From contig JAPOQA010000031.1 of assembly GCA_026710945.1 (NCBI GenBank), positions 50,611 to 114,610 on the forward strand: 64,000 bases of DNA, read 5' to 3'. Of the stretch, positions 1,526 to 18,580 are shown one piece after another. Below the pieces are notes generated by a model. That model saw only the letters and a program-made list of their open reading frames with translations. It did no database searches and was not told the DNA's origin. Position 1 is the stretch's first letter. Each line of letters opens with the position of its first letter. The DNA is from Chloroflexota bacterium (GTDB taxonomy: Bacteria > Chloroflexota > UBA11872 > VXOZ01). The translations under genes and the position numbers were made by a program.

Positions 1526-2074
1526 GTGAATGCCTGGGTGCAGATAATAGCGGAGGACGAGGCGGAGGGTCAGTTACGCGCGGTCTACCAGGAGCTACTC
1601 GGTGAAGGTCGGCGGAGCAGTGTGCCCGATTTCCTGCGCTTGCATAGTCTCGTGCCCCGCGCGATTGTTCCGCTCGCCCAGTTGCACCGGGCCATCGCTT
1701 ACGGGCCAGGCGAGTTGTCGCGGACACAGCGCGAGTTAATTGCCACGGTAGTTTCGGTCATCAACGGCTGCGGCCTTTGCCAAGAGCTGCATAGCCGCCT
1801 GCTGCTCCACCGCACCCGGGATGAAACGCTTGTGAAGCAAGTCCAATGCGATTTCCGCACAGCCCCCCTCACCGCTGTGGACCGCGCGATGCTGGAGTAC
1901 GCAGCGAAACTCACCACCGCTCCTGCTGCCGTTGCGCGTGAGGACATAGAACAATTGCGTCAACTTGGACTGAACGATGCTGCCATCGTCGCAATCGCCA
2001 CGCAAACCGCTCTCTTCAACTATCTGAACCGCGTCATTCAAGGCCTCGGTCTGGGAGAGACCGACGCACTATGA
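1526..2074 (+). CDS. carboxymuconolactone decarboxylase / AhpD-like family protein
   Basis: 182 aa, GTG start; AhpD-core-like CGLCQELH motif; lies between the DAHP synthase gene and aroA; its stop overlaps the aroA start (ATGA). Confidence 0.65.
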   Translation: MNAWVQIIAEDEAEGQLRAVYQELLGEGRRSSVPDFLRLHSLVPRAIVPLAQLHRAIAYGPGELSRTQRELIATVVSVINGCGLCQELHSRLLLHRTRDETLVKQVQCDFRTAPLTAVDRAMLEYAAKLTTAPAAVAREDIEQLRQLGLNDAAIVAIATQTALFNYLNRVIQGLGLGETDAL

Positions 2075-3366
2075 AGCGAATCCAACCCATCAATCACCCC
2101 GTGAACGCCACCGTTACCCTACCGGGATCCAAAAGCTATACCAACCGGGCGCTCATCCTCGCTGCGTTGGCTGACGGCACATCAACGTTACGCCAGGCGC
2201 TGTTTAGTGACGACACCGTGTACATGGCAGATGCGCTCCGGCAGCTTGGAATTCCTGTATGGGCAAACGAATCCGACAGTACGTTCGTGGTCGAAGGGAA
2301 AGGCGGCTCTATTCCCGCCAGCGAAGCGGACCTCTTCGTCGGACTCTCCGGTACGAGCGCGCGCTTTCTAACGGCGTTCGCCGCACTGGGCCACGGCCGT
2401 TACGGTGTGGATGGCGTCCCGCGCATGCGCGAACGCCCTATGCAACCGTTGCTTGACAGTATTCTCCAGCTAGGCGGCAGGATCCGGTCTCAGACCGGGA
2501 ATGGCTGCCTGCCCATCGCCATTGATGGGCGGGGGCTGCGCGGCGGCAGCGCTTCTATGGCCGGCGACCAGAGCAGCCAGTACTTCAGCGCTCTCCTTAT
2601 GGTCGCGCCATACATGGCAGATGGGCTCGACCTCGCCGTGAACGGCCGCCTCGTCCACGGTCAGTATGTCACTATGTCGATGAAGAGCATGGCGGAATTT
2701 GGGGTTGCGGCGACACATGAGGGAGAGCAGCGCTTTCGCGTTGCACCCGGGCAGCACTATCAAGCTCGCACGTACGACATAGAGCCGGACGCCTCCGCCG
2801 CATCCTATTTCTTTGCGGCTGCGGCGCTTTCGGGCGGCACGGTCCGCGTAGAAAATCTCGGCGCCGACTCCGCCCAAGGAGATTTAGACTTCGTTGACGT
2901 GCTCGCTGCCATGGGTTGCGAGGTCGAAAAGAGCGCCGATTACGTGAGCGTCACAGGTCCCAGCAATTTACAGGGCGTTGACGTAGACATGGGTTCCCTG
3001 TCCGACACCTTCATGACTCTGGCCGCCCTTGCGCCATTTGCCGACGGGCCTACCGTCATTCGCGGAATTGCGCACACCCGCTTGCAGGAAACCGACCGTG
3101 TTCACGCCACCGCGCAAGAGTTGCACAAGCTGGGAGTTGCCGTTGAAGAGTTTGACGACGGCTTGCGCATCAAGCCGGGCGCTGTGCACGGCGCCACCAT
3201 AGATCCCCACGACGACCATCGCATTGCGATGAGCTTTGCGCTGGTCGGCCTGCGGCAGCCCGGTGTTATAATCGGCAATCCAGAGTGCGTGGCAAAGACG
3301 TTTCCAGATTATTTCGACTGCCTAGAGGAAGCGGTTCGCCCAGCCCAGCGCTCTGCGCCAATCTGA
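2071..3366 (+). CDS. aroA: 3-phosphoshikimate 1-carboxyvinyltransferase (EPSP synthase)
   Basis: 431 aa; N-terminal LPGSKSYTNRALILAALA, later DHRIAMSFALVGL; ATGA overlap with the upstream gene. Confidence 0.9.
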   Translation: MKRIQPINHPVNATVTLPGSKSYTNRALILAALADGTSTLRQALFSDDTVYMADALRQLGIPVWANESDSTFVVEGKGGSIPASEADLFVGLSGTSARFLTAFAALGHGRYGVDGVPRMRERPMQPLLDSILQLGGRIRSQTGNGCLPIAIDGRGLRGGSASMAGDQSSQYFSALLMVAPYMADGLDLAVNGRLVHGQYVTMSMKSMAEFGVAATHEGEQRFRVAPGQHYQARTYDIEPDASAASYFFAAAALSGGTVRVENLGADSAQGDLDFVDVLAAMGCEVEKSADYVSVTGPSNLQGVDVDMGSLSDTFMTLAALAPFADGPTVIRGIAHTRLQETDRVHATAQELHKLGVAVEEFDDGLRIKPGAVHGATIDPHDDHRIAMSFALVGLRQPGVIIGNPECVAKTFPDYFDCLEEAVRPAQRSAPI

Positions 3367-3740: not shown

Positions 3741-6017
3741 ATGAGCCGCTTTCTTTCCACCCTTGCGACACCTCTCGCGGGCTTCCAACCGTCCTTGGAA
3801 GACGCACCAAAGCACTCGCCACGCTTGATTGGTGTTATCTTTCTGTTCTTCTTCTTGCTGTACACCCTAACCGGCGGCGGTCATGTTTACAGCGCAGAGG
3901 GGGAACACGCATACGCCATCAGCCACAGCCTCCTCTTGGAGCCGGAACGCGAAGGCCTGCAGCAAGACTATCGCGAACTCGCATCGTGGGAGTTGGGGCT
4001 ACCGGTCTTGATGCAACCCACCTTGCTCCTAGGCGCCATCATCGATCCTTTGCTGCCCCAGAGGGATGCATTTGGGCATCAGGGAGACACATATGTGCTG
4101 GGAGAGTATCCGGTACTTGCACGACGAGGCACGCCCAATACTCGCGATACACTCCATATACCCCTTGAGGACACACGAGCCAAGGCGCTCGTAATCTTTT
4201 CCAATTTGGAATCATCTCAAGAGATCAAGGAAGGTTCGCGTATCGCCACGATTACGTTTGACACCGTCCCCGTAGGTAGATTCTTTGGAGAGGTGAAGGC
4301 CGGGCGAGACACTGCAGAGGCAGCATACGACCTTTCTGTCATTCAAGGAGGAGTGGCGCATGGCAAGGCTGAGACTGTGGCTCGTCGCATCGGCATGCCC
4401 AGGTCCAACATCTACGTCTCAGAGCTGCAGTTTACACAGCGCTTGACCGTTAAGAGCATCACCATCCAGTACCACGCACAAGAAGGCGCGTTGCACATAT
4501 CTTCTCTTAACCTCATAGACGCCGAGACTGACGAACCTATACTGATCGGCTCCACTGGAAGAGTATGGTCCGAGCAGGAAAACAGTGACTATTTCAGGCG
4601 CTTATTTGCGCTCTTTACCAACGCCTGGGTAACCGCCCTCAGTGCGGTGCTCATGTTTCTCATAACGCGACGCCTGGGATACCACAGCCAGGTCGCCCTT
4701 GCCTTGACGTTGCTCTTTGGACTAGCCACGCTTGCGTGGCCGTACGCCAAGTATGACTATACTGAACCGGGAATTGCTCTCGCTCTCTTGGGTACGGTCT
4801 ATTTCCTGCTGCGGGGTGTCCAAGACCGGCAATTGGGTTGGATTCTTGTCAGCGGACTCATCATTGTGTGCGGCATTGCCATTAAGTTTGTTACGGCAAT
4901 CAATCTGGCTGTCCTTGTTCCGCTGCCGGCACTCGTTTCATTCCAGGGCTCCCGCCAATTCCTGCGATCCCTCGCTTGGGCTCTCGTACGCACTCTCGTA
5001 TTCCTGGCCCCGATAGGCCTTGTTGGCCTCGTGGCACTCGTCGCGCTTGTGTCTGCATCGGACCTGGAGTCTTTTGTGCCTACCGACTTGATCGAGAGAC
5101 TTTCCGCCGGGCTCGACCTGCCGACATGGATTGGTCTGTATGGCAACCTGTTAAGTCCGGGGAAGAGCGTCCTGCTCTATGCGCCACCCCTCATTCTTGC
5201 TCTCTTTGGGAGTCTGCCGTTCATATCGCGACACAAGTGGTGGTCGCTTCCATTCGCGTGCATACCCCTGATCTACTTGCTCATCTATAGCAGTGCAGGC
5301 GACTGGTATGGCGGGAGTACCTGGGGACCGCGCTACCTGGTTCCTGCCGTACCTCTGCTGCTGGTGATGGCTGCGCCAATTCTAGAGAAAGCGCTATTTG
5401 ACAATGGCGTGAGAGAATTGCGGGCCGCCGTGGTTCTCGGCGCTGTAGGAATCGGTATGCAACTCCTCGCCGTCGCCAATAACTTCGAGCGGTACTTCAG
5501 CCTGCTGCGTTCCCAGGTCTTGCCGCAGATTCCGGAGAGCGGCGCGTTTCTGGCCGGACGTGTAGGACAAGCATATTACGCCCATCCTGCAAACTTGCCA
5601 GCCGATAAGGAGAGTGTCCTCTATCTTTTTGCGACACCATTTTCGCCCATATTCGCCCACATCTGGATTCTGGCGGCAGACACAGTGGACCTTTTCCTGA
5701 TTTCAAGCCCCGAAATCCTGCGAGCCGTGCTAAGTCGTCCTCCATGGACTTTGCTGGGAGTGGCAATTTGGCCTCAGCACCCCGAAGAGGTGCTGGGTCT
5801 GGACTTCTGGTCGATGACATTGTGGCGGGACTTTACCAACCACGCCATCCTTCTCGCGTTCATCTTAATCTTCGTATTGGCCTGCCAGGCCGCAACCCTC
5901 TACTGCTGGACGTGGCTAAGCCAGCGTTTCGAGCTAAGCATGCGGCTCTATTGGGGTGGAATTATCGGCCTTGCGACGTTCTTTATCCTGTTCGATGTGT
6001 CCCACATTCTTCAATAG
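3741..6017 (+). CDS. large polytopic membrane protein, possible GT-C-type (PMT/ArnT-like) glycosyltransferase
   Basis: ORF 3696..6017; N-terminal TM (VIFLFFFLLYTLTGGG) followed by the acidic AEGEH motif, a ~300-aa loop domain and then >=10 predicted TM helices; start codon uncertain (3696 or 3741). Confidence 0.4.
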   Translation: MSRFLSTLATPLAGFQPSLEDAPKHSPRLIGVIFLFFFLLYTLTGGGHVYSAEGEHAYAISHSLLLEPEREGLQQDYRELASWELGLPVLMQPTLLLGAIIDPLLPQRDAFGHQGDTYVLGEYPVLARRGTPNTRDTLHIPLEDTRAKALVIFSNLESSQEIKEGSRIATITFDTVPVGRFFGEVKAGRDTAEAAYDLSVIQGGVAHGKAETVARRIGMPRSNIYVSELQFTQRLTVKSITIQYHAQEGALHISSLNLIDAETDEPILIGSTGRVWSEQENSDYFRRLFALFTNAWVTALSAVLMFLITRRLGYHSQVALALTLLFGLATLAWPYAKYDYTEPGIALALLGTVYFLLRGVQDRQLGWILVSGLIIVCGIAIKFVTAINLAVLVPLPALVSFQGSRQFLRSLAWALVRTLVFLAPIGLVGLVALVALVSASDLESFVPTDLIERLSAGLDLPTWIGLYGNLLSPGKSVLLYAPPLILALFGSLPFISRHKWWSLPFACIPLIYLLIYSSAGDWYGGSTWGPRYLVPAVPLLLVMAAPILEKALFDNGVRELRAAVVLGAVGIGMQLLAVANNFERYFSLLRSQVLPQIPESGAFLAGRVGQAYYAHPANLPADKESVLYLFATPFSPIFAHIWILAADTVDLFLISSPEILRAVLSRPPWTLLGVAIWPQHPEEVLGLDFWSMTLWRDFTNHAILLAFILIFVLACQAATLYCWTWLSQRFELSMRLYWGGIIGLATFFILFDVSHILQ

Positions 6018-6295
6018 CGCAGCTCGCATGCCGAGAATTCACTTGGTGATTCACGCGGGATTTAGGCGTGCCGCAGGTGTGCCAAAACACGCTACTGCGA
6101 AGCCTGCCGCTTGCCAAAGAAAATACGCAGCTTAGGCACGCCGCGCGCAGGCCTCGAGAACTAGCCTCTTCCCAGATGCCAAGAATCGCAAAGGCTTACT
6201 GGACGTGGGTAAGAAAAGGCCGAGACAACCTGGGTTGAACAAAGTCATCGCCCGGACGGGCAACTCAAGGGAACTGCGTCAACCGAATTGCAGGA

Positions 6296-6700
6296 TTAGG
6301 CGTTGCAGGGTATGACTTGAACAGCCACCGAGCGTCGTGGGCGAGGGCCGTCAAGCTCTACGAAGAAGACGCTCTGCCAGGTTCCCAGGACAAGGCGGCC
6401 TTCATGAACCGGGATCATAAGGTTGCCGCCAATGATACCGGCCGTGAGGTGTGACCGGGCATTATTGTCTACGCAGTCATGCCGATACTGCGCTTGGGGC
6501 AGCAAATCCCGCACGACCGCCTCAAAGTCTCGCTTGAGACCGGGTTCGTTTTCGTTGACAAGCATACATGCGGTTGTATGCAAACAGAAGACGCTGCAGA
6601 CACCTTCTTCAATGCCGGATTCCGTCACGGCATCGTGAAGGTCATTGGTGATATCCAGCAACTCAGTGGGTTGCGCGGACGCAAGAGTTATCGTCTTCAT
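6296..6700 (-). CDS. YjbQ/UPF0047 family protein (secondary thiamine-phosphate synthase-like)
   Basis: ORF 6296..6742; probable start at MKTITL; conserved core SVFCLHTTACMLVNENEPGL...HLTAGIIGG...VFFVELDGPRPR. Confidence 0.7.
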   Translation of the reverse strand: MKTITLASAQPTELLDITNDLHDAVTESGIEEGVCSVFCLHTTACMLVNENEPGLKRDFEAVVRDLLPQAQYRHDCVDNNARSHLTAGIIGGNLMIPVHEGRLVLGTWQSVFFVELDGPRPRRSVAVQVIPCNA

Positions 6701-6986
6701 AGCTTTGATTTCACGATACCACACGACTCTGAAATGAGACAAAGACGCACGGGACAGACAATCTCTGCTTCTCCAGGTCTACAACCACCGGTCTATCGCC
6801 GCCCACTTGCCGTTATTCCACACTTACAAATGCAATCCGGCTGCGCCATTGCTCTACCCACAGAAACGCTACCAACGAGCCTCCACTGCTGTGGTCTTGA
6901 CCTGACCCCTTTTCAAGCGAAAACACACATGTGGCAACTCTTTGGTAACGCTGTGTCACAGCACGCTACGCGTGTGCCCGGCAGAT

Positions 6987-9900
6987 TCAAGGCGGTCCGG
7001 CCCCAGCAGTTTTCAATCCCTCTCCAGAACTCGTGGGTTTCCGGCTAGTAGTGTACACGATGGCGCACAAGGCCGCCGTTAACCAAAACCAGCTCGCCAG
7101 GTCCGGCAAGAAATAGTAATTGTCCAACATGCCGTGGGTTACTGCCGCGAGTTGGCTCCCAGCCAAGCCCACACCAAGAGCGCGTACTTCCTTTTCCCGG
7201 CTGGTATACGCAATGCGATGTGTGAGCATGAAGAAGCGCGCAAGATAGCCAACGATGAAGACGACTCCCACTATCCCGAGGCGCAGCCAGAAGTCAAGGA
7301 AGAGATTGTGCGGGTGCGACAAATTCGGCTCACGCCAGGCAGCCGGGTTCAAGTACTGCGCGTGGACATAGAGGTAGTTATCCAGACCTACACCGGTGAT
7401 CGGGTAGTCCGCGATCATCTGCAGGGATGACTGCCCATTAACGATTCGCATGTGCGTCGTTGTGCCTGGCTCGACACTTAGTACCGACCGCACCCGCTCC
7501 GGGCCAAAGTTGACGCCACCGGCAAACAGCAGCACCGCGACGAGGACTACGCCACCGAAGAAACGTACCCGTAGTCGGCGTTCCGGCAAGAGCACCCAAA
7601 TGAAGAACAGCAGGAGTATAAGCCCGGCTATCCATCCCGCGCGCGAGAAGCTGCCCAGCAACGCCACCGCGAGCACACCTGCGAGCGGCCAAGCCACACG
7701 GGAGGGCCAAAGCTTGAACATGCCGGCAGCGACCACAAACGGCAGCGCCCGTTCGACTATCATCGCAAGGTGATTGGGCGAGGGATAGAATCCCGAGAGC
7801 CGAATCACGCCTTCTGCCTGCACCGCAGCATTGGGGTCGATGATGGGCCCTGCCAGCGCCACTGCCGCCGCCACGGCCGCGCCCGCCACAAACGCCTGTA
7901 TCAACCGCCACGCCTGCTGCCGGTTTTCGAGCAGCCAGCTTGCGACCAAGAACAATAGCACCGGCACAACTATCGTCTGGCGCAACTCGCGCAAACTAAA
8001 GACCCCATAGTGGGAAAACAGGAGCGACACCGCACCGATCACGAGCAAACCGACAGCCCACCAGGTAAAGACGCGCCGTTCAACAACCAAGCGCTGCCTC
8101 ACGAACGTGTGCACCAGCAGCGACCCGACGAGCAGTGCCGCCAGAATCTCATTGACGGGCAGCGCGAGGCGACCGGCGGCGGGTGTCAAAACGGAGAAGG
8201 GCAGTGTTGCTGCCACAACGAACAAGAGTGCACGGGGCCAGACCAGTGCGGCAAGGCCAAGCAGGGCCACGAGCAAATACTGCGCCGCCGCTCCCGGCAC
8301 AATCCACAGCAGACCGGCCACCGGCAGCAACAACCCGAATCGAGCCGTCTCATGCTGCCATATGCCACTGGCAGTCCGTTCCATGATCTTGCCGAGAAGC
8401 TCGCTAAGCTGACGCCGTTGCCGCAGCCATCCGGTAAGAATCCAGCCGATTGCGGCAATGAATCCCGCGTACAGCCCGCCTACAAGTACATAGGGCCACA
8501 AGGGACGTTCCCGCACGACGACTATGGCATCGATGTCTACCCCAATGTCGCTCGACTGTAGGTTGCGCCGGCCTGTGACTTCGATCTCAACAAGGTGCTC
8601 GCGATCCGGGAGTCGATCTGCCAGCAGCACTTCTTCTTGCCAGCGGTCTTCAGGTGCGTAAAGGTCCAGCATGGCCTGACCGCCCGCGTCCTTGTCCAGG
8701 CGGTGGGCAAGAGACTGCGAGCCGTTGATGCGCACCAATGCAATGCCCTTGTCCGGCCCTTTGTGGACTACCAGGGAGACTGCCGTGCCATGAAAGCGAA
8801 AGCGCAGGCGGGCGCCCGCCTGCGGGCTGCCCCGCGCCTGACCCAGCGAGTAGGTTTCATTGGCGATGTCGATCCACTCGCCCTCCCAGGCGAGCGCGGG
8901 ATGGTTCTCCTGATGGTAGCCCGGCCCGAGTACGGGCGGCGCGCCCATCAAATCCCGCATGGCCGCAAGCACCGGGCGCTGTGCGAATTCCTTATCCACA
9001 ATGCCGAAGTATTGCGTGGGGTCATCGGGGTGGGCTTGGGGCCAGTAGAAGTGCCAGAGATTTATCATCGGCAGCCACGGCCACTCGCGTTGCGCGCGCT
9101 GCATGCCCTCCACTGTGTAGCGTGCCTGCGTCGCTTCCGAGACATTGCCCCAAGGCGAAGGACTGCCCTGCCAGTCCGTTGGCAGCGCGACCCACCCGTA
9201 CTCTCCGGCCCAGATGGGTTTGGACGCGTCGCCGTTTCGCACCATCACTTCCCGTACCAACACCGCTCGCGCCATGTTCGTGCGGTGTCGCGCTATGTAG
9301 CGGTCATCCGGGCCGTGCCACAAGCCATAGGACGCCGTGCTGACCACGTCGAAGTACGGCGCGCCGCCGTGCGCATAGATGCCCTCGAGAAAGAGCAGCT
9401 CACTGAGGTTCTTGGGACCGGTCTCAGTCGTCGGCGCCAACACGGCGGCAACGATGATCGCCTTCGGATTCGCCTGCCGGATACGCTGCGAGGCCACTTG
9501 GAGCATCGCCACGTAGGCCGCCGGATCGGGATTGTGCGGCCACCATTCGCCATGGAGATTGGGTTCATTCCAAATTTGGAAGATCTGCACGTCCCCGCGG
9601 TACCGCTGGGCAAACGCATATGCAAAGTCTCCATAGTCCTCAAGCCGTGCCGGTGGGCCCTGTTGACGCCCGTCGTCCGGCGGCTTGTCGTCGGCATACG
9701 CCCAAGGTGGGGGTCGTTCGAGGCGCGCGATGATCGTCAAGTTGTGTTGCTTCGCCAGCGCGACCAGCCGGTCGTACTTCTGCCAGGTACTTTCCTCGGC
9801 AAGGTCGTTCCAGTACCTTCCCTTCCACGGACGCTCGATGTCCTCCCAGGCAAAGACCTGCCGGATGTAGCGAAAGCCTGCTTCTTCCAATAACGCCATG

Positions 9901-10103
9901 CCGCGCTCGATACGATCCCAATCCGGGTCTTGATCGAAGCGCGTATTGATGCCGTAGCGATACACCGCGGCGTGGCGGAGGGGGTGCACGGATTCGCGTC
10001 CGTAGGCGACGCCGGTTTCAAACCAGAAGCGGTAGCCGACCAAGGCCAGCGTCGCGGCGCAGAGCACCAGAAGACAACCAACAAAGAGGAGTAGTCGCAC
10101 CAC
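6987..10103 (-). CDS. fusion membrane protein: N-terminal TM anchor, clan GH-A-like glycoside hydrolase domain, and C-terminal O-antigen-ligase (Wzy_C / WaaL / PglL-like) polytopic domain
   Basis: 1038 aa; the N-terminal 350 aa carry GH5-like motifs (IWNEPNL acid/base, AGEYGW nucleophile); a middle beta-rich domain follows; the C-terminal ~500 aa have >=10 TM helices with Wzy_C hallmarks (FSRAGWIAGLILLLF, SHPHNLFLDFWLRLGIVG). Confidence 0.65.
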   Translation of the reverse strand: MVRLLLFVGCLLVLCAATLALVGYRFWFETGVAYGRESVHPLRHAAVYRYGINTRFDQDPDWDRIERGMALLEEAGFRYIRQVFAWEDIERPWKGRYWNDLAEESTWQKYDRLVALAKQHNLTIIARLERPPPWAYADDKPPDDGRQQGPPARLEDYGDFAYAFAQRYRGDVQIFQIWNEPNLHGEWWPHNPDPAAYVAMLQVASQRIRQANPKAIIVAAVLAPTTETGPKNLSELLFLEGIYAHGGAPYFDVVSTASYGLWHGPDDRYIARHRTNMARAVLVREVMVRNGDASKPIWAGEYGWVALPTDWQGSPSPWGNVSEATQARYTVEGMQRAQREWPWLPMINLWHFYWPQAHPDDPTQYFGIVDKEFAQRPVLAAMRDLMGAPPVLGPGYHQENHPALAWEGEWIDIANETYSLGQARGSPQAGARLRFRFHGTAVSLVVHKGPDKGIALVRINGSQSLAHRLDKDAGGQAMLDLYAPEDRWQEEVLLADRLPDREHLVEIEVTGRRNLQSSDIGVDIDAIVVVRERPLWPYVLVGGLYAGFIAAIGWILTGWLRQRRQLSELLGKIMERTASGIWQHETARFGLLLPVAGLLWIVPGAAAQYLLVALLGLAALVWPRALLFVVAATLPFSVLTPAAGRLALPVNEILAALLVGSLLVHTFVRQRLVVERRVFTWWAVGLLVIGAVSLLFSHYGVFSLRELRQTIVVPVLLFLVASWLLENRQQAWRLIQAFVAGAAVAAAVALAGPIIDPNAAVQAEGVIRLSGFYPSPNHLAMIVERALPFVVAAGMFKLWPSRVAWPLAGVLAVALLGSFSRAGWIAGLILLLFFIWVLLPERRLRVRFFGGVVLVAVLLFAGGVNFGPERVRSVLSVEPGTTTHMRIVNGQSSLQMIADYPITGVGLDNYLYVHAQYLNPAAWREPNLSHPHNLFLDFWLRLGIVGVVFIVGYLARFFMLTHRIAYTSREKEVRALGVGLAGSQLAAVTHGMLDNYYFLPDLASWFWLTAALCAIVYTTSRKPTSSGEGLKTAGAGPP

Positions 10104-10361
10104 TGTAGGAAAAGTCTCTCCAGGGAAGCACTATCTAAGCGCGTGGCGACCAATCGGGATCCCATTTAAGCAGAGTTTAGCAGTAACGCCGCTAACGCGT
10201 ACTCGCTGCCTAGGACTGCCGCAAGTCAGTTGGGACGCTGGGTGGAGTCTCGTGCCCGGGCGGGAAAGCTTCAGGTCAGGCGGAGAAGATGAGGGAGCAG
10301 TTGGCCCGCAGCCGCTTCCAGGCACAAGTCTTGCGGCAGGAAAGTGCCCGAGGGAAGCCTG

Positions 10362-11504
10362 TTACACCACCGCAAGCAGCTCTTCCTGGGCCGGATTGAG
10401 GACACGGTCTATGCGCCCCCCGCCAATCACTTCATCATCTTGATAGAATACCGTCGCCTGGCCGGGAGCAACCGCGCGTATCGGGCGGGCAAACACAACC
10501 TCCGCTGCACCATTACCCGCCGGCTCTACAATTGCTTCCACCTCTTCCATACGGTACCGCGTGCGCACGTTCACACGAATTGGCTCCGTTGGAGGCGAGC
10601 CCGCCACCCAGTGCACGTCAATCGCCTGCAGGGCATGCGCGTAGAGGTCTTCCTCTTCACCGACGAAAACGGTATTTGCCTCCGGGTCCAATGCAATCAC
10701 GTACAACGGGCGCGGCCACGTCAAGCCAAGACCCCGGCGCTGTCCGACCGTATAGTTGACAGTGCCGTCATGTGCGCCTAGTACCTTTCCATCTTTAAAA
10801 CAGATCGGCCCGGAGCGGGCGATGCCTGGCTGCCAAGACTCCAGGAAATCGCGATAGTTGTCGTTGGTCACAAAGCAAATCTCATAGCTATCCGGCTTGT
10901 CCGCCACGTGCAGACCGTACCGCCGCGCCAAGTCGCGAGTCTCTGTCTTTGTCTGGGTCCCCATGGGAAAGAGCGTTCGCGCCAGTTGTTGCTGGCCCAG
11001 CATATAGAGCACGTAGGACTGGTCTTTCTGTGGGTCTAGCGCGCGATGCAGACGATAGCGCCTGGACACGGCATCTCGCTCAATGCGCGCGTAGTGGCCG
11101 GTGGCAAGATAGTCGGCGTCGAGCTCCTGCGCCCGCTTGAGAAAGGCCGCAAATTTGACGAACTGATTGCAGTCGACGCAGGGGTTCGGCGTGCGGCCGC
11201 TGGCGTAAGAAGCGACAAACCGCGCCATGACTTCCTTCGCGAAGATCTCGCGGAAGTTGAGTGAATAGTGCGGGATGCCGATCCGGTCCGCCACGCGCTG
11301 GGCGTCATGGGTGGCGCTCAACGAGCAGCACGCGTGCAGGCGGGTATCCACCATGCCCTTCTGCCAGACATTGAGCGTGATGCCAATCACCTCATGTCCC
11401 TGCTCGGCAAGCATGGCGGCCACCACAGAAGAATCAACGCCGCCGGACATCGCGACGACGATGCGCAGCGGCTCTTTGGTTCGGGAATTCTCGTCAGGAA
11501 ACAT
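10362..11504 (-). CDS. mnmA: tRNA-specific 2-thiouridylase
   Basis: 380 aa; PP-loop RIVVAMSGGVDSSV; conserved cysteines and C-terminal barrel typical of MnmA/TrmU. Confidence 0.9.
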   Translation of the reverse strand: MFPDENSRTKEPLRIVVAMSGGVDSSVVAAMLAEQGHEVIGITLNVWQKGMVDTRLHACCSLSATHDAQRVADRIGIPHYSLNFREIFAKEVMARFVASYASGRTPNPCVDCNQFVKFAAFLKRAQELDADYLATGHYARIERDAVSRRYRLHRALDPQKDQSYVLYMLGQQQLARTLFPMGTQTKTETRDLARRYGLHVADKPDSYEICFVTNDNYRDFLESWQPGIARSGPICFKDGKVLGAHDGTVNYTVGQRRGLGLTWPRPLYVIALDPEANTVFVGEEEDLYAHALQAIDVHWVAGSPPTEPIRVNVRTRYRMEEVEAIVEPAGNGAAEVVFARPIRAVAPGQATVFYQDDEVIGGGRIDRVLNPAQEELLAVV

Positions 11505-11576
11505 AGCCCTCTAAGTTTAGCACAATTCGCTCCCTCCACCTTGGAAATCCCGCAAAATCAGTGCCGCCAAGCAAGG

Positions 11577-11809
11577 GTCTCCCTCTCCCATGGAGACACT
11601 TGCACTACCAAGGCCGACTAGCTAGAGGCCCCCCTCTCCCTAGGAGCTTGTCACAAGAGTTCACTGCTCAAAGTAGACTTACCCTTCGACAAGGCTCAGG
11701 GCGAACGGCAAAGGCAAATCCCGTTCGTGCTGAGCCTGTCGAAGCACAGTTTTGCTTATCGAGTCGACCTATGAGACTGCCTCCTGGGGGAGAGGGTCGG
11801 GGTGAGGGG
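11577..11809. repeat. MITE/REP-like structured element with imperfect terminal inverted repeats (ccctctccc...gggagaggg) and the GGGAGAGGGTCGGGGTGAGGGG end motif
   Basis: Right end tatgagactgcctcctgggggagagggtcggggtgagggg is near-identical to 60137-60171; internal perfect 15-bp stem cttcgacaaggctcag / ctgagcctgtcgaag (11683-11752). Confidence 0.4.
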
Positions 11810-11966
11810 AAGACCACGTCAACCAAGCCTATTGCTAACAGTCAGGCACAGTTGCATAGGGCTCTCATTCGATCGAGGACGGTGTTATTGGTAGCCTGCG
11901 ACGCATACGCTATACTGGGGGCAGCGAGAGCCGCGCACGCATCACACTACTACCAGCACGCAGCGC

Positions 11967-12404
11967 ATGACACTAGACGTCCCGATACGCGTTCGCTATG
12001 CCGAAACCGACGCCATGGGGGTGGCGTACCATGGGCATTATTTCACGTGGTTCGAAGTCGCGAGGGTAGAGCTTATGCGCGCGCTAGGATTGCGCTATCG
12101 AGACCTTGAGGCGGAGGGGATCTACCTGCCGGTTGTGGAATGTCGAGCGCGATTTCTTGCCGCCGCCCGCTACGACGCTCCCTTGCAGGTGCGCACGGCG
12201 CTCATGGCGGCCACGCGCGCCAGGATCGTGTTCGGCTACCTCGTGCGGGAACCGGAAGCGACTGTCCCACTTCTCGCCTGCGGTCAGACTACCCACGCGT
12301 TTACTACGCGCGAGGGCCGCGCCACGCGACTGCCCCAAAGTCATCCGCTGTGGCAAGGCATGCGTAACGTCACTTGTCAGCCTGAATTCGTCTCAATTGC
12401 CTAA
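11967..12404 (+). CDS. acyl-CoA thioesterase, YbgC/4HBT hotdog-fold family
   Basis: 145 aa; RVRYAETDAMGVAYHGHYFTWFEVAR is the typical 4HBT N-terminal signature. Confidence 0.7.
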   Translation: MTLDVPIRVRYAETDAMGVAYHGHYFTWFEVARVELMRALGLRYRDLEAEGIYLPVVECRARFLAAARYDAPLQVRTALMAATRARIVFGYLVREPEATVPLLACGQTTHAFTTREGRATRLPQSHPLWQGMRNVTCQPEFVSIA

Positions 12405-12625
12405 CTGGGAGCTGCAACACCGATGACCAATCGCCCTCAGACGCAAAAACGCTCCGTGTTGCGGCTCGTCCTCTACGCGTTGGTGCTGCTCACGCTCGTC
12501 ATAGCATTCCTCTACGCTTACGAGCTGATTGGCGGACTCGTCGACTCCTTGCTGGAGTTCGTCGGAGACATCATCGGCCAATTCTAGCGTCCCAGTTCGC
12601 GCGCCTCTTCTCCATGCTATGGCCC

Positions 12626-12912
12626 CTGAGAATTGTAAGTGTTGAGTAATTCGTTGACAGAATCCGCTTTCCATTCTGAGGAGTTGACGGTGCATGTCAT
12701 TCCGAGCGGAGCGTCGAACCCTGTTCGCGGAATCTAGGGTCCCTGCTCAACGCACTTTAACGGCTTCAGCACACTAGATTCCGCGCTAAGAGCGACTCTT
12801 CGCTGCGCTTCGTTCGGAATGACATGTGTACTAGTCATGTCTAACACTGCGAAAGGTTGCTTTTGTTCTCAAATCTGTCAACGAATTACCTGACATTTAC
12901 AAGAATGACCGC
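12626..12912 (+). mobile_element. ~290-bp complex palindromic MITE-like element, copy 1
   Basis: Terminal inverted repeats tgttgagtaattcgttgacaga / tctgtcaacgaattacctgaca; long central palindrome gtcattccgagcggagcg...cgcttcgttcggaatgac; near-identical to the reverse complement of 57070-57356. Confidence 0.6.
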
Positions 12913-13050
12913 CGACCGCAGCGCGTCCGGGATTCATTTACTTAAGAACCTGTTGGGGGATTCAAGACATGCTTCGCCCGTCTTCGCCTATTCAGAATTG
13001 CCAAGGTCCGAGCATGTCATTCGCACAAGGCAGCTGAGTGAGAGCCTAGA

Positions 13051-14466
13051 CTACTCCGGCACCGGAGTGGGGGGCGGTTTCGGAGTGAGATACTCCTCGA
13101 TAGCGTCGTGGGCGTTTTGCGCCGCTTCCTCAATGGAAACTTGGCCCCGCGCCACGGGCAGGGTGAGCCGGCTGAAGATCTGCCAACTCAACACGGTTGA
13201 GGTTGCCAGGTGGGAAGGCACACTGTCCACCAGGAGTTCCAGCAATACGTCCCGCGCTATGGGGTCGAGCAGCAAGGACATGTACTTGCCGGCCGGCTTG
13301 TTGATGAATCCCTGCGCTTCCGTAACGGCCGGCACCAAGCGAATCTGGCCGAGGTGATGTCCCAGATGCAGCATGGTCGCGAAGCCCGCGTCGCCATGCT
13401 GGCTGCCGACCGGCATCACCAGCGCCTCCTGCAGGCCGAGTGGTGTCCCGCTGCGGTCTTCTTTGGGTATCACTGCGGGCATGCGGTCCGCCCTCAGCCT
13501 GCCAAAGAATGGATTGAAGACCATCGCTGTCTGCAGGCGCTGGCCGTCAATGGTGCCGCGCAGCGTATTGGAGTCTACATCCGGGCCATGTGGCATAACG
13601 CCATGGATGCGGCCGAGTTCCTGCCAGAAGCGGATGCCGCGCTGCGCCGCCGGTTCGGTGAGCTTGATCTCCCCCGTATCCAAATCTACGGCGTCGCCGC
13701 CCTCTTGGAGCACAAAAGGCAGCCAGCCCGGAATGCTCCACTCCGTATATCCCCAGAAGTCGATCTTCGTATCGCCGTCAACGTCCCGGGTCAGTGACTT
13801 GGCCGCGAAGATGAAGTCCTCGTGGTTCCACGTGTGCGTCGGCGTCGCTACTTTGAATTCCTCAAACTTTGTGCTGTTGTACATCACCATAGCCGGCAGC
13901 ACGGCCAGCGGCACGGCCATGAGCTGGCGCTGGTAGCGCGACAATTGCAGCGCGTTTCCCGCGAAAGACTCAAGCAGGTCGCTGTCCTCCGTCTGGGCGT
14001 AGCGATCCAGCGGCGCGAGGATTTGGTGGGTAAAGGCGCGCGGAAAGTCCAACGCGGAGTGCATCCAGGCGATGTCGAGCGGCGCACCGCTCGCGTCGCG
14101 GGCGACGACGAACTCCCAAAATGCATCACGCCACGACTTACCGCTCGGCCGCAGTATCTCTACGGCTTCTAGCTGAGAGCGCGGCGTGGGGCCGTCAATT
14201 TGCTCCTCGTTCCAGGCGCTGATGGCATTGCTGGCCTCGGTGGGGATGCCGGCGAGGCGCGCCATAAAGGCAAACGTCAGGGTCACCGGCTCGGCTGATT
14301 GGCCGCCGTCGGATGATCGCGGGGCTTCCCGGAATGGCGCATTGCCTTCAAGCTCGGGCCTTGCGCTTGCGCGCCCCGGACCCCCGCCACAGGCCGCGAG
14401 TACTGCAGCACTCCCACACAAAGCAGCCAGCGTCGCCACACACTCTCGTCTCGTCATCTCGTTCAC
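13051..14466 (-). CDS. extracellular solute-binding lipoprotein, ABC-type sugar SBP family 1, with no adjacent permease
   Basis: 471 aa; signal peptide with lipobox LAACGGG; SBP_bac_1-like fold pattern. Confidence 0.7.
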   Translation of the reverse strand: MNEMTRRECVATLAALCGSAAVLAACGGGPGRASARPELEGNAPFREAPRSSDGGQSAEPVTLTFAFMARLAGIPTEASNAISAWNEEQIDGPTPRSQLEAVEILRPSGKSWRDAFWEFVVARDASGAPLDIAWMHSALDFPRAFTHQILAPLDRYAQTEDSDLLESFAGNALQLSRYQRQLMAVPLAVLPAMVMYNSTKFEEFKVATPTHTWNHEDFIFAAKSLTRDVDGDTKIDFWGYTEWSIPGWLPFVLQEGGDAVDLDTGEIKLTEPAAQRGIRFWQELGRIHGVMPHGPDVDSNTLRGTIDGQRLQTAMVFNPFFGRLRADRMPAVIPKEDRSGTPLGLQEALVMPVGSQHGDAGFATMLHLGHHLGQIRLVPAVTEAQGFINKPAGKYMSLLLDPIARDVLLELLVDSVPSHLATSTVLSWQIFSRLTLPVARGQVSIEEAAQNAHDAIEEYLTPKPPPTPVPE

Positions 14467-14505
14467 CCTGATTCGTCAAACGCGTATACTTCTGAATCCT
14501 CGTCA

Positions 14506-15825
14506 CTAACGAGGCGGTGAACCGAGCCATTCACGCACCACGGCGGCACCGTTCTCCAGGGCGGCAGGGGCAGCGAGACTGCCTCTCAGCGCCGGCAAGG
14601 CCATCCGCTCGGTCAAGGTCTTCCCTAATCCACTATACAACGAGAGCGTAGTGCCGACACTATACGAGAGGCTTCGCAAGACCACGTCCGCTCGGTCCAG
14701 CCCCAATGCAAGGTCAGCGTGCATGCGGTTGGGACGACGGATGAACTCAATTGCGTTATTGCGCGGTGGCACCAGCAACTGTGACCCTAGTTGTGCGGCC
14801 AGCGGTTTGGCAACGGCGTAGGCAGCGTCAATATTCGCGCTGTGCGCGGAAACGCCAACCATGTCGGTGACCAACATGGGTAGGGATTGGGACGGCCCGT
14901 TGGGTGTCCCAACAAAGGCGAACGGCAATGAGTAAGGCTCCGTGTTGTGCCAGTTGATGAGTTCGAGGCGCAGCGGCGCTGTGGAAGAACCGTTTCGCCG
15001 CCGCATAACTGCATCCATGGTGACGTGCGGCCCGCCTTCCAGCGCCCGATAGCGGTGTGCAAGTTCCATCCAAAAATGCAGCCCGCGCCGGGCCTCTGAC
15101 TGGTCAAGCGTCGTTCTGCCGGCGCCAAGATCGGCAACCCGCCCGCCTGCGCCAACAATTAGAGGCAACCAAGCGGGAACGGTCGTCGTGCCAAACCCCC
15201 AAACTGTGCCCTTGTCCGCGGTGTGTGTCAGCGCCGCGGCCATCGTGGCAAATTCATCCCACGTCCAACTTGACAGCGGCGACGGCACCTCGCGCGCCGT
15301 GAGAACTTCAGTATCATACCGCACTGAAAGAATGCCCAGCGCCGCCGGGAGCGCCATTTGCTGTCCCCAAAACTCTAGGGCGCGCAATGACTCCGGATGG
15401 TAGCCCTTCAGTGTATTGTTGGTGTCGTTATCGAGAAAAGGGTTTAAGGGACGCAGCAAATCGCCGCGCAAGATCTCCGGGAGGTCATCCTGCAAACTGA
15501 ACCAGACAACGTCAGGAGCCTCGCCTGCCGCAACGCGCTGGCGAATTGCGGTCACAAACGAACGGCCGGGCGTGGCTACGATCCTGTGTACTTCTCTGAT
15601 GGTGGGTATGCCGTCGCGCCCGCCGGGCGCCAACCCGTAGCGCACTGTCGGCAACGCCTTGTCCAATACGGCGTTCACCCGGTCACCGGCTCGCACGGCA
15701 ACGGTGACGGTGACCTCCTCCGGCACTGGCGTCGGCGCATCGGGGGCGCCGCGTTTACCGCAGGCAAGCAACAGACCGCTGCCAAGGCCTGCACTGCCGG
15801 CTCGTAACAATTCTCGTCGCGTCAT
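14506..15825 (-). CDS. extracellular solute-binding lipoprotein, SBP family 1 paralog, with a TAT-like signal
   Basis: ORF 14506..15891; probable start at MTRRELLRAGSAGLGSGLLLACG (TAT-like RR plus lipobox); paralogous to the downstream SBP. Confidence 0.65.
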   Translation of the reverse strand: MTRRELLRAGSAGLGSGLLLACGKRGAPDAPTPVPEEVTVTVAVRAGDRVNAVLDKALPTVRYGLAPGGRDGIPTIREVHRIVATPGRSFVTAIRQRVAAGEAPDVVWFSLQDDLPEILRGDLLRPLNPFLDNDTNNTLKGYHPESLRALEFWGQQMALPAALGILSVRYDTEVLTAREVPSPLSSWTWDEFATMAAALTHTADKGTVWGFGTTTVPAWLPLIVGAGGRVADLGAGRTTLDQSEARRGLHFWMELAHRYRALEGGPHVTMDAVMRRRNGSSTAPLRLELINWHNTEPYSLPFAFVGTPNGPSQSLPMLVTDMVGVSAHSANIDAAYAVAKPLAAQLGSQLLVPPRNNAIEFIRRPNRMHADLALGLDRADVVLRSLSYSVGTTLSLYSGLGKTLTERMALPALRGSLAAPAALENGAAVVREWLGSPPR

Positions 15826-15913
15826 GGGCAAGACCCCCCGCAAAGAACTGTCCTTAGGGTACATACTCCCACTGCGCTTCAAATGTGTCAATCGCCTGGC
15901 GCAATGTTCCGGC

Positions 15914-16576
15914 TCAACTACGGAGCGCGAACTTCACCAGGGTCCACAACGCGTGCGGCCCGTCAATCCAAGGATTGAGCTTGCGCTCTCTGCGTGGCGT
16001 GTAAGATATCGGCACCTCACGAATGCCATAGCCTAGCTTCAGGATTTTCGCCGTGATCTCCGGCTCCAATTCAAAGCCCGAAGACTCGATAGTGAATCGA
16101 TCGACAACCTCCCTGGCCATCATCTTGTAGCACGTCTCCATGTCATGCAGCGAGGCCCGAAACAGGATACGTGTTACGAGGGTAAGGAAAACATTGCCGA
16201 GACGCCGGACGAACTCCTGGTGTTCCAACGATCGCACGCCATAGACCACCTTGGTCTCGCCCCGCGCGATCGGTCCCAGCAACGCCGGAAAGTCCGCCGG
16301 ATCATACTCCAGATCAGCGTCCTGAATGACGATCACGTCTCCCGTCGCCGCCGCCAACGCGGTGCGAATTGCCGCGCCCTTTCCTCTATTCTCCGGGTGA
16401 TAAACTACGTGGTACCGCTCGTCCTGGAGAGACTGTAACACTGCTGTCGTGCCGTCCGATGAGCCATCGTCTACGATGACGATCTCTTTCTCCAAAGAGA
16501 CGTCCGCCACGCGCTCCAGAACTGCGCGCACGGTCTCGCATTCGTTGTAGACCGGAATCAAAACGGAGAGTTTCAT
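15914..16576 (-). CDS. GT2 family glycosyltransferase, polyprenol/dolichol-phosphate mannose (or glucose) synthase-like (DPM1/Ppm1 catalytic domain), no TM segments
   Basis: ORF 15914..16606; start at MKLSVLIPVYNE; motifs VIVDDGSSDGT, QDADLEYDP; ~220 aa soluble domain. Confidence 0.8.
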   Translation of the reverse strand: MKLSVLIPVYNECETVRAVLERVADVSLEKEIVIVDDGSSDGTTAVLQSLQDERYHVVYHPENRGKGAAIRTALAAATGDVIVIQDADLEYDPADFPALLGPIARGETKVVYGVRSLEHQEFVRRLGNVFLTLVTRILFRASLHDMETCYKMMAREVVDRFTIESSGFELEPEITAKILKLGYGIREVPISYTPRRERKLNPWIDGPHALWTLVKFALRS

Positions 16577-16867
16577 AGCAGCTATACCATCGGTTGCAAG
16601 AATCAAACACCCAAACGCACTGGGAGGAGCGAGGCACTCAGGGAATGCCCAACGGGGCTAGGGGTGTCGGCAAATGCGTAGCTCAGAGTAAGTCAGGTCT
16701 AGGTTGGTTTAGGAGCGCCCCTACTATATCATTGGGTCCATAACTGAGTAAACACCTCCCACGATTCGAACTTGCCGGCGCCAAGCTGCACTGCTCTCGA
16801 GACCAGGGCAGGCCGCGACCGCGCTGTGCAGGATCATCTCCCATAATTCAGCGCCAAGGAGCACACA

Positions 16868-18580
16868 ATGGCCACGCCGCCGTACTCCGTACACGTGGAA
16901 CGAAATGTCGCCGTGCCCATGCGGGATGGCGTTGTCTTGCGCGCAGACGTTTACCGACCGGATGCTGCGGGGCCGTTTCCCGTAATCCTCACGCGCACGC
17001 CGTACAACAAGACTGCCTTAGACGGCGGTCCGTCACCTACCTACGAAACCCTGGCTGCGTCAGGGTATCTTATCGTGGCACAAGACGTGCGCGGCCGCTA
17101 TGCCTCGGACGGTGAATTCACGCCGCTCTTTGCCTTTGGCTATCCGGATATCGAAGACGGTTACGATACGGTTGAGTGGTGCGCGCGGCTGCCGGATTCA
17201 ACCGGCGACGTCGGCATCTTCGGCAACTCCTACGGGGGCTTTACTTCGTATTGCGCCGCTTTCAGCCAAGCCCCCAGCCTCCGCTGCGTCTTTGCCGAAG
17301 GTATGACCCAGCGCCTCACGGACTTTGAGCCGCACTTCCGTCCCGGGCGGCGCTTTGCCTGGTCTATGTGCACCATCGCGCCGGACATTCGTCTCAAGCA
17401 GGGCCTCGGTGGGCCGCATCACAAGGAGATTGCCGATCAATTGTGGGAACGTGAACGCCACAAGTGGCTGTGGTTCCTGCCCCGCAAGGACATACCGGAC
17501 GATCACTTTGGCGGGCCTGTGCAGGCCGCCTACTACCGCACGCTCATGACCGAGGCCGGCGTCGACACGTTCCAGTGGCAAGACCGCTACCCGGACGTCC
17601 GCGTACCGGTATTCCACCGCACGGGCTGGTACGACCGCTTCGTGCGCGCGATCGACGGCCATACGCTCATGGCACAGCAGGCCGGCACGCCGGAGGCCCG
17701 CGCCGGGCAGCGCGCCATGATTGGACCCTGGGGACACACAAGCGCCCTTAACGTCTACGAAGGCGAACTGGATTTCGGTCCTGACGGCCTTGTGGAGCAG
17801 ACCGACCTCCTGCTCCGCTGGTTCGATTTCTGGCTCAAAGACCAGGATACCGGCATCATGGACGAGGGGCCGATTAGCCTATATATTCTTGGCGACAATG
17901 CGTGGCGCAACGAGAATGAATGGCCGCTCGCGCGTACACAGTACACCGACTATCACCTACACAGCAACGGCAACGCGCAGACCCCTCACGGCGACGGCGC
18001 CCTTTCGCCAGATCAGTCGGGTGACGAGTCGCCCGACCAGTTTGTCTACGATCCTCGCGATCCGGTGCCCTCTTGCCATCTGATGCACGATCAAGACGGC
18101 GTCTTCGACCAGCGCGTGCTGGATTCTCGCCAGGACGTGCTCGTCTACCAGACCGACACCTTGACTGAGCCATTGGAGGTGACCGGCGAACCGGTCCTGC
18201 ACCTGCATGCCGCTTCCAGCGCCGTTGACACGGACTTCATGGCAAAACTGATCGACGTCCACCCCAATGGCTTTGCGCAAAACCTCAGCTACGGTGTCGT
18301 GCGCGCCCGCTACCGCAATGGCTATGAGTCGTCGCAACTGCTAACGCCCGGACAGGTGTATGAATTCACCATCACGCTCAACCCGATCGCGAATGTCTTT
18401 CAACCCGGCCACCGCCTGCGCCTGGATATCTCCAGCAGCGACTTTCCCAACTGGGACCGCAACCTGAACACCGGCAGCGACGGCTACGCGGATGCCACGA
18501 TGGTCAGCGCCCGCCAGACTGTGCTTCACGATGCCAACCACCCAACGCGCATCACTTTGCCCGTTATTCCGAGAGACTGA
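16868..18580 (+). CDS. CocE/NonD family alpha/beta hydrolase (S15 Xaa-Pro dipeptidyl-peptidase-like)
   Basis: 570 aa; N-terminal VPMRDGVVLRADVYRP...PVILTRTPYNK and nucleophile elbow GNSYGG. Confidence 0.8.
   Translation: MATPPYSVHVERNVAVPMRDGVVLRADVYRPDAAGPFPVILTRTPYNKTALDGGPSPTYETLAASGYLIVAQDVRGRYASDGEFTPLFAFGYPDIEDGYDTVEWCARLPDSTGDVGIFGNSYGGFTSYCAAFSQAPSLRCVFAEGMTQRLTDFEPHFRPGRRFAWSMCTIAPDIRLKQGLGGPHHKEIADQLWERERHKWLWFLPRKDIPDDHFGGPVQAAYYRTLMTEAGVDTFQWQDRYPDVRVPVFHRTGWYDRFVRAIDGHTLMAQQAGTPEARAGQRAMIGPWGHTSALNVYEGELDFGPDGLVEQTDLLLRWFDFWLKDQDTGIMDEGPISLYILGDNAWRNENEWPLARTQYTDYHLHSNGNAQTPHGDGALSPDQSGDESPDQFVYDPRDPVPSCHLMHDQDGVFDQRVLDSRQDVLVYQTDTLTEPLEVTGEPVLHLHAASSAVDTDFMAKLIDVHPNGFAQNLSYGVVRARYRNGYESSQLLTPGQVYEFTITLNPIANVFQPGHRLRLDISSSDFPNWDRNLNTGSDGYADATMVSARQTVLHDANHPTRITLPVIPRD

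Follow-up and report, generated by a model that had tools for sequence, protein, structure and literature searches.

Probably separate units rather than one glycan-assembly system: a PslG-like hydrolase::Wzy_C fusion, a candidate polyprenyl-phosphate sugar synthase and paired orphan sugar-binding lipoproteins in a syntenic stretch of an uncultured Chloroflexota lineage

Do the envelope-glycan genes and the solute-binding lipoprotein genes that lie close together in the genome of an uncultured Chloroflexota bacterium form one system, or are they only neighbors? The question is raised by a 64,000-nt stretch of contig JAPOQA010000031.1 (assembly GCA_026710945.1, positions 50,611–114,610), referred to below as the window (G+C ~59%), and in particular by positions 3741–16576 within it. 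These hold a 758-aa GT-C-like membrane glycosyltransferase (3741–6017, + strand); a 1038-aa fusion of a glycoside hydrolase (GH) to a Wzy_C domain (6987–10103, −); two lipoproteins of the family-1 (CUT1) solute-binding proteins (SBPs), the divergent SBP1 (471 aa; 13051–14466, −) and SBP2 (439 aa; 14506–15825, −); and a 220-aa family 2 glycosyltransferase (GT2) without transmembrane (TM) segments (15914–16576, −). A preliminary description of the window had joined them into one functional set, with the GT2 supplying a lipid-linked hexose to the GT-C protein and the SBPs, for want of a transporter, perhaps assisting glycan assembly in the manner of mycobacterial LpqW. Every gene it named is present, within a few codons of where it was placed or exactly there, and its family assignments (GT-C, GH::Wzy_C, TM-less GT2, paired SBPs) are borne out; the functional set and the LpqW-like role are not. 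The proteins are already deposited at NCBI (MCY4436952/954/959/960, on a 128,883-bp Chloroflexi metagenome-assembled genome (MAG) contig) under the generic names “phospholipid carrier-dependent glycosyltransferase,” “O-antigen ligase family protein,” “extracellular solute-binding protein,” and “glycosyltransferase family 2 protein.”

On balance, the interval is probably not one system: it reads as a syntenic, mostly housekeeping stretch that holds three separate units. These would be two neighboring, convergent envelope-polysaccharide enzymes, the GT-C protein and the fusion; a TM-less GT2 of the DPM1/AglJ class; and two paralogous family-1 sugar-binding lipoproteins under control of their own. 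The components are ordinary, and a role of the SBPs in glycan assembly is unsupported.

The evidence against a single system comes mainly from gene order. A profile scan of genome contigs with SBP2 found 16 species, all of them uncultured Chloroflexota MAGs; the isolate names of some (SB0662_bin_44, Plut_88905) hint at sponge or coral hosts. The order GT2-SBP2-SBP1 … fusion … GT-C occurs only in these 16 close relatives, at 72–97% identity, and in nearly all of them it is part of a longer series: MalK-DUF624-DegT-alaS-(MFS)-PepX, GT2-SBP2-SBP1, p54-4HBT, and mnmA-(epimerase)-fusion-(YjbQ)-GT-C. Since alaS, PepX, mnmA, and DegT are as syntenic here as the glycan genes, the synteny carries no functional signal. 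Beyond the clade, the partners lie elsewhere. No GT-C, GT2, or SBP gene was found within 10 kb of the fusion homologues at 39–46% identity, which have a stand-alone GH paralogue nearby, and two distant clusters with homologues of the GT-C protein or the GH module contain no SBP. A scan of metagenome contigs for the SBP1 family returned a single locus (L024, a partial 3.2-kb contig), where a relative at 37% identity, the only distant one with readable neighbors, lies directly downstream not of a GT2 but of an OmpR-type response regulator and a HAMP histidine kinase. The proposed functional set is thus an order confined to one clade with global synteny, and the association of the SBPs with glycan genes across lineages that an LpqW-like role would call for is seen in that one clade only.

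Within the block itself, the SBP pair appears to have its own control region. In an alignment of the spacer between GT2 and SBP2 (15826–15913, −) from the 16 species, most retain ATTGACA together with a TATAAT-like box (in the window, TTGACA at 15891–15886 and the box at 15865–15860); the spacer is otherwise variable, from 88 to about 280 bp. Because the motifs are conserved while the length is not, separate regulation of the SBPs is indicated, and the spacer is probably, to judge by its sequence, a separate promoter or operator of the pair. The case for a canonical sigma-70 promoter is weakened by the distance of 20–23 nt between TTGACA and the box, which is not canonical, and by an automatic promoter and terminator scan, which called neither kind of site in the spacer; the elements are therefore kept only as conserved non-coding motifs. 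A promoter-like site is also present 5′ of GT2 (16723–16752, −; TTTACT-18-TATAGT with TG), as a consensus match only.

The fusion is the most interesting element of the interval, an uncharacterized but database-annotated architectural variant. Pfam finds Wzy_C (PF04932) at residues 810–950 (5.8e-23; 81.8 bits vs. a cut-off of 31.7) and Cellulase at residues 65–218 (7.6e-8). A confident AlphaFold2 (AF2) model (predicted local distance difference test score, pLDDT, 84.6; predicted TM-score, pTM, 0.77) begins with a TM helix at the N-terminus; next come a TIM barrel glycosidase (residues about 40–390, or 50–390 in the model; 8934–9986, −), whose catalytic pair is the acid/base E180 in the motif WNEPN and E301 in GEYGW; a beta-sandwich, read from the secondary structure of the model (residues about 395–530; 8514–8921, −); and a polytopic membrane domain of the Wzy_C/WaaL fold (residues about 536–1020; 7044–8498, −). 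Some homologues carry PF17996. The best PDB match by sequence is PslG (1.4e-7), which is also first by Foldseek (E 2.6e-17, TMt 0.65), with GH39 xylosidases next; the membrane half matches WaaL (7tpg; E 2e-8, TMt 0.69). The protein thus belongs to the Wzy_C family and, through its other half, to the PslG-like glycosidases (GH39/GH5-like) of clan GH-A. Across 41 homologues at 31–86% identity, W178, E180, P181, and N182 of WNEPN are invariant and the nucleophile E301 nearly so; in the Wzy_C part, R708, R768, R785, R886, E925, H930, and H932 are invariant. With the catalytic residues of both conserved, the two halves look catalytically competent.

This architecture is widespread in Chloroflexota, with 411 matches, many of them full-length at 35–46% identity. 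The hydrolase module is also found alone (about 580 aa) and, in one protein of 1264 aa (P0094; L026 10001–13795), fused to a PMT_2 GT-C domain. The gene for that protein belongs to a classic polysaccharide cluster, which also encodes a Bac_transf initiating transferase, a stand-alone Wzy_C, and, besides three more PMT_2 proteins, two each of GT4 and GT2. Stand-alone paralogues of the hydrolase domain of 384–385 aa, 35–38% identical to it, occur in two loci of distant relatives, directly upstream of the fusion gene in one (L006, 8824–9978) and about 6 kb upstream in the other (L007, 2428–3585). The distance from mnmA to the fusion, 259 bp in the window, is larger by about 1.3–1.6 kb of extra DNA in a number of related loci (L004, L013–L016, L018, L019, and L023); in L004 a gene for an NAD-dependent sugar epimerase/dehydratase lies between the two (15496–16461).

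The Wzy polymerase of the Pseudomonas Psl system is PslJ; its periplasmic endoglycosidase, PslG, has been proposed as a failsafe that clears misdirected polymer (PMC13434223). Taken with the clusters in which the homologues lie, these roles lead us to infer that the fusion most plausibly couples a polymerase or ligase step of the Wzy_C type with a trimming hydrolase. It would most likely polymerize or ligate a polyprenyl-diphosphate-linked surface glycan at the outer face of the membrane, with its hydrolase half shortening or freeing any chains that are misdirected. A “self-editing” surface-glycan polymerase or ligase of this kind, found Chloroflexota-wide, is reasonably likely. To our knowledge, a lipid A-core acceptor is not expected in this phylum. 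Literature searches returned no paper on Chloroflexi with O-antigen ligase, on Wzy_C with PslG, or on a fusion of a PslG-type hydrolase to Wzy_C or to GT-C in Chloroflexota.

The GT2 matches Glycos_transf_2 (PF00535) at 2.3e-34. Its first NCBIfam match is AglJ (8e-36, profile positions 2–218 of 293), and the haloarchaeal Dol-P-hexose transferase, ArnC, and PpgS are other strong ones; in the PDB, the dolichyl-phosphate mannose synthase (DPMS) of P. furiosus is best (5mlz; residues 1–194, with the DAD motif aligned), and ArnC next. It is accordingly a GT-A fold GT2 with a DxD motif and full-length similarity to polyprenyl-phosphate glycosyltransferases. The deposited copy is 220 aa long and the called genes of two relatives 220–222 aa, and prediction of hydrophobic and TM segments found none. 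The preliminary description was right in calling the enzyme soluble and of DPM1 type, and a GtrB/ArnC-type protein was rejected, there being no C-terminal TM segment. GT2 and GT-C are on opposite strands, and the 10 kb that separate them include mnmA, a thioesterase gene, and the SBP genes. The clustering of a three-component Gtr-type system is not seen: the genes are apart, and no GtrA is found among the scanned ORFs (those of about 150 aa or more in the 64-kb window, which is the scope of all permease and flippase scans of the window). A polyprenyl-phosphate-hexose synthase is probably the best reading of GT2, on the strength of its family. On the cytoplasmic side of the membrane it would attach hexose to polyprenyl phosphate, and the product would supply GT-C enzymes like that of the window; the donor supply proposed earlier is biochemically plausible, and the argument for it is the family membership of the two enzymes.

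The GT-C protein has about 12 hydrophobic segments and 157 homologues, several of which carry PF02366 or PF13231. The membrane core of its AF2 model, built from 45 sequences, is confident, and its best Foldseek matches are GT-C enzymes, with low TM-scores. A polytopic protein with the conserved GT-C helical module, it is placed in the superfamily and no further, because no single GT-C family stands out. The model has a beta-sandwich of roughly 170 residues inside the first outer loop (residues about 105–270), which appears CBM-like (resembling a carbohydrate-binding module); we know of no such loop-1 insert in any characterized GT-C. Column 53, the acidic position of loop 1, is D in 36 of 45 homologues; the window protein has E there, as do three orthologues. 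The gene is the fastest-evolving of those considered, with 62–73% identity to most in-clade relatives, and a homologue at 37% identity sits among GT4, YfhO, and methyltransferase genes. An assignment to PMT/GT39 was considered and rejected: the Pfam PMT match (PF02366) scores 21.9 bits, below the cut-off of 22.7, and in fold the protein matches ALG12, AglB, and ArnT just as well. The loop-1 motif is S-A-E-G, not the D-E of PMT/GT39.

Both SBPs have a leader of the M-T-R-R, twin-arginine-like type followed by a lipobox Cys, as read from the translations (MTRRELL…LLAC in SBP2). Their paralogy shows in an alignment of 363 aa at 27% identity (E = 9e-35). SBP2 matches SBP_bac_1 (5.2e-10; 40.3 bits vs. 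a cut-off of 26), and the SBP1 family profile, searched against the PDB, finds arabino-oligosaccharide, trehalose/maltose, and other sugar SBPs (best 3e-17). SBP_bac_1 homology together with an export and lipoprotein signal makes them CUT1 SBPs. Their solved relatives (AbnE, the trehalose/maltose-binding protein, GacH, GNB/LNB-BP, and MalE3) are all oligosaccharide-binding proteins of ATP-binding cassette (ABC) importers. LpqW is not among the PDB matches, either of SBP2 (E up to 1) or of the SBP1 family profile (up to 0.01). It is a family-5-type SBP, and so from a different SBP family. A word-indexed search with SBP2 reached no more than 18 clusters, none of them below 71% identity. An exhaustive HMMER search with SBP1 gave 1857 matches below 1e-3 among 1.8 billion representatives; those below 1e-30 include four full-length lipoprotein relatives (P0260–P0263) at 35–36% identity. 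Ratios of nonsynonymous to synonymous substitution (dN/dS) against eight relatives are 0.08–0.16 for SBP1 and 0.10–0.18 for SBP2, as for alaS and the fusion; all the genes discussed are under purifying selection (0.04–0.18, the range of alaS), and both SBP genes are functional.

Many of the weaker SBP1 matches are proteins of 840–980 aa with two matched stretches, and the six that were scanned (P0273, P0277, P0279, P0281, P0282, and P0284) each have two tandem family-1 SBP domains, which suggests that paired SBP domains can act together or as sensor modules. In one related locus (L017, 14761–14967), a 69-residue fragment 65% identical to the SBP1 C-terminus, 2 kb downstream of the intact gene, is probably a duplication remnant. 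In some relatives SBP1 is closely followed by genes for secreted proteins whose linkers are long Pro/Thr repeats (TPTPTP…), at L008 13040–13942, L011 13200–14120, and L017 12869–14692 and 15228–16034. Such linkers are typical targets of O-glycosylation in other monoderm bacteria.

If these are receptors of an importer, where is the rest of it? As the preliminary description had it, the SBPs lack a local permease: none of the scanned ORFs in the window matches BPD_transp_1, and no permease is present in the 16 related loci. Downstream of SBP1 there is only a convergent thioesterase gene with a 54-aa peptide. The 1.5-kb “gap” between mnmA and SBP1 was considered as a site of degraded permeases and holds instead this 4HBT thioesterase (11967–12404, +) and the peptide, a membrane peptide (12423–12587, +); the 1.4–3.6-kb insertions after SBP1 in L008, L011, L016, and L017 contain the secreted Pro/Thr-repeat proteins or unrelated ORFs. 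The preliminary description overlooked the gene of a UgpC/MalK-type ATPase 13 kb away. This gene stands alone at 29558–30805 (UgpC 3.3e-102, MalK 3.9e-79; PF00005, OB_MalK), beside a DUF624 (YesL-like, PF04854) membrane protein gene with which it occupies 28861–30805 (+). Neither has a permease or SBP gene for a neighbor in the window, and the pair recurs in most related loci. The ATPase may energize several CUT1 importers in common, including one that the orphan SBPs may serve. CUT1 ATPases shared in this way are known, MsmX and MsiK among them. The SBPs would then most likely be extracellular oligosaccharide receptors of an ABC importer, with permeases elsewhere in the genome and the stand-alone protein possibly as its ATPase. 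SBPs whose genes lie apart from those of their transporter have been described as common in bacteria (PMC3223731); a literature search returned no paper on orphan SBPs in Chloroflexi.

Other readings of these genes have to be weighed against three separate units. For the glycosyltransferases, it is unlikely that GT2 and GT-C are an actinobacterial-type Ppm1/Pmt system of protein O-glycosylation with the Pro/Thr-tailed SBPs as its substrates instead of its partners. In Streptomyces, Ppm1 and Pmt do glycosylate many SBP lipoproteins (PMC6593405; PMC5882110). The GT2 is of the Ppm1/DPM1 class, SBP2 has PDAPTPVPE after its lipobox, SBP1 ends in TPKPPPTPVPE, and the Pro/Thr-repeat secreted proteins lie beside SBP1 in relatives. 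Against this reading, the GT-C protein has a sub-threshold PMT match, with ALG12, AglB, and ArnT scoring as well, EG instead of DE in loop 1 (and Q in two orthologues), a beta-sandwich insert that is no Pmt feature, and a 37% homologue in a polysaccharide cluster. Less likely still is a GT2 that acts on a soluble acceptor, for example as a compatible-solute synthase like GpgS, and has nothing to do with any GT-C. In its favor, the enzyme lacks a TM segment, has neither a membrane-protein partner nor a flippase close by, scores far below the equivalog cut-offs, and is matched by GpgS structures at about 1e-10 to 1e-8. Those matches, though, span only the first 108 residues or so. The alignments to AglJ and DPMS run almost from end to end and take in the C-terminal segment EVPISY..R..K, and the five strongest matches by bit score (AglJ, the haloarchaeal Dol-P-hexose transferase, ArnC, and PpgS, with DPMS in the PDB) are all polyprenyl-phosphate enzymes.

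For the SBPs, the alternative with most to recommend it, unlikely as it is, makes them ligand-sensing co-receptors of a membrane sensor, a histidine kinase or an anti-sigma factor, instead of or besides serving an importer. SBP genes that adjoin those of the sensor kinases they activate are documented (PMC11113362). The 37% relative of SBP1 lies next to a two-component system, and one tandem-SBP relative has a weak, sub-threshold match to the anti-sigma domain zf-HC2 at its N-terminus; yet the former context is a single example on a partial contig, and neither the window nor any of the 16 relatives has a sensor kinase gene adjoining the SBPs. Ordinary operons for sugar uptake, too, often have two-component system genes beside them. 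We consider it very unlikely that, as first proposed, the SBPs are extracytoplasmic assembly factors like LpqW, working with GT2, GT-C, and fusion. The block GT2-SBP2-SBP1 is unbroken on one strand in all 16 species while its flanks take small insertions, the window has no permease, and the SBP family is narrow and divergent; against this stand clade-wide synteny that includes housekeeping genes, distant fusion homologues without these neighbors and distant clusters without an SBP, promoter-like motifs inside the block, an SBP1 relative that follows a two-component system, and membership of Pfam family 1, with LpqW unmatched. Even more improbable is a joint reading in which, in a symbiont-associated clade, GT2 and the SBPs together make up a module for handling glycans outside the cytoplasm and so feed or regulate a self-editing fusion; an LpqW-like role would then have evolved independently from a family-1 SBP.

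The division into three units has points against it as well. Because GT2, SBP2, and SBP1 are uninterrupted on the same strand in 16/16 species, with no terminator-like site between GT2 and SBP2, co-transcription of the three is compatible with the arrangement. The family is narrow enough (only 6 SBP1 matches below 1e-30 among the 1.8 billion representatives), and SBP1 divergent enough (it reaches E 0.01 for no Pfam model), that a specialized non-transport role would fit too; transport by the SBPs we infer from their relatives, with a permease search that covered the 64-kb window and the 16 related loci. GT2 is far below all NCBIfam equivalog cut-offs (AglJ, 123.9 bits vs. 325), and among the scanned ORFs of the window there is no GtrA-type flippase or anchor for it. 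Confidence in the model of GT-C is no more than moderate (pLDDT 64.7), and column 53 is Q in two in-clade orthologues. For the Wzy_C domain, the data do not separate polymerase, ligase, and O-oligosaccharyltransferase. The substrates suggested here, for all of these proteins, are accordingly to be read as candidates.

The rest of the neighborhood, as ordered from 0.4 to 24 kb by ORF listing and profile searches, is mostly housekeeping. Genes for a DAHP synthase (443–1492, +), a CMD-family protein (1526–2074, +), and an EPSP synthase (2071–3366, +) precede GT-C. A YjbQ/UPF0047 gene (6296–6742, −; PF01894, 5.7e-37) separates GT-C from the fusion; it is missing or replaced at this position in relatives and stands outside any glycan function. 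The fusion is followed by mnmA (10362–11504, −) and an interval of about 460 bp before the thioesterase gene (11505–11966) with no convincing gene and no Rfam match; the translation of a 182-aa ORF (11561–12109) is Arg/Pro-rich and non-protein-like. Beyond GT2 are genes for a PepX peptidase (16868–18580, +), an MFS transporter (18713–19996, +), and a PIN toxin (20165–20638, −), then alaS (21051–23774, +). The PepX-alaS interval is variable among relatives, with the MFS gene present or absent and, at the position of the PIN gene, either a MazE-like antitoxin and PIN pair or a MazE-like gene alone. Farther on, a 491-aa protein (45725–47200, +) with two Thy1 (ThyX) domains has the look of a flavin-dependent thymidylate synthase with its domain in tandem. 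Neither a tRNA nor an Rfam family was matched when the window was scanned in full.

What the locus offers is, in the first place, clear annotation for envelope-glycan genes of an uncultured Chloroflexota lineage. The recurrent fusion of a PslG-type hydrolase to Wzy_C, and in one case to GT-C, is a tractable model for coupled glycan polymerization and trimming. An LpqW-like role would, if true, extend a function in glycan assembly to family-1 SBPs outside Actinobacteria; the evidence is unsupportive. The interval is also a worked example of why adjacency within a globally syntenic clade should not be taken as functional linkage.

Compared with known systems, the resemblance to LpqW is one of idea only: both are SBP-fold lipoproteins without an adjacent transporter, but the window SBPs have no sequence match to it, and their association with glycan genes is confined to one narrow clade. 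With CUT1 SBPs (AbnE, 6RJY; TMBP, 1EU8; GacH; GL-BP) they share the Pfam family, the lipoprotein anchor, and a DxDxD loop, and they differ in being very divergent, in occurring as two paralogues in tandem, and in having no adjacent permease genes. The stand-alone MalK/UgpC-type ATPase in their neighborhood recalls the CUT1 SBPs served by MsmX and MsiK.

The GT2 resembles the polyprenyl-phosphate synthases (AglJ/DPMS, DPM1, Ppm1, PpgS, ArnC, and GtrB) in its GT-A domain, its DAD motif, and its full-length alignment to AglJ and DPMS. It is below their equivalog cut-offs, and no DPM3, Ppm2/Lnt-like protein, or GtrA was found in the window. In lacking a TM anchor it is like the DPM1/Ppm1 class and unlike GtrB and ArnC, which have C-terminal TM helices; human DPM1 and the catalytic domain of Ppm1 also lack an anchor. 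In the GT-C protein, as in GT-C enzymes that use polyprenyl-phosphate sugars (PMT/GT39, ArnT/GT83, ALG12/ALG9, and AftA/B), loop 1 opens with an acidic residue and continues into an amphipathic helix motif. It differs from them in that this residue is Glu, not Asp (Gln in two orthologues), in its loop-1 beta-sandwich insert, and in its sub-threshold PMT score.

For the fusion, the nearest comparisons are WaaL (7TPG) and the Psl system of Pseudomonas aeruginosa. Its membrane half is above the threshold of Wzy_C (PF04932), matches the WaaL fold, and conserves the loop Arg and His residues; it differs from WaaL in carrying an extracytoplasmic hydrolase extension of 530 residues, and its scores for the NCBIfam models RfaL and IctB (about 37–38 bits) are far below the cut-offs (277–366). 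The soluble half is like PslG in its TIM barrel, beta-sandwich, and N-terminal membrane anchor, and the membrane half is like PslJ as a polytopic domain of the Wzy_C family, the broad class that takes in Wzy polymerases and WaaL. The differences from Psl are identity to PslG of only about 17–18%, a role that could be that of polymerase or ligase, a Chloroflexota host with no PCP/OPX (PslE/PslD) genes near the fusion and no psl-like operon, and the joining of the two activities: the fusion would be PslJ plus PslG of the Psl pathway in a single polypeptide.

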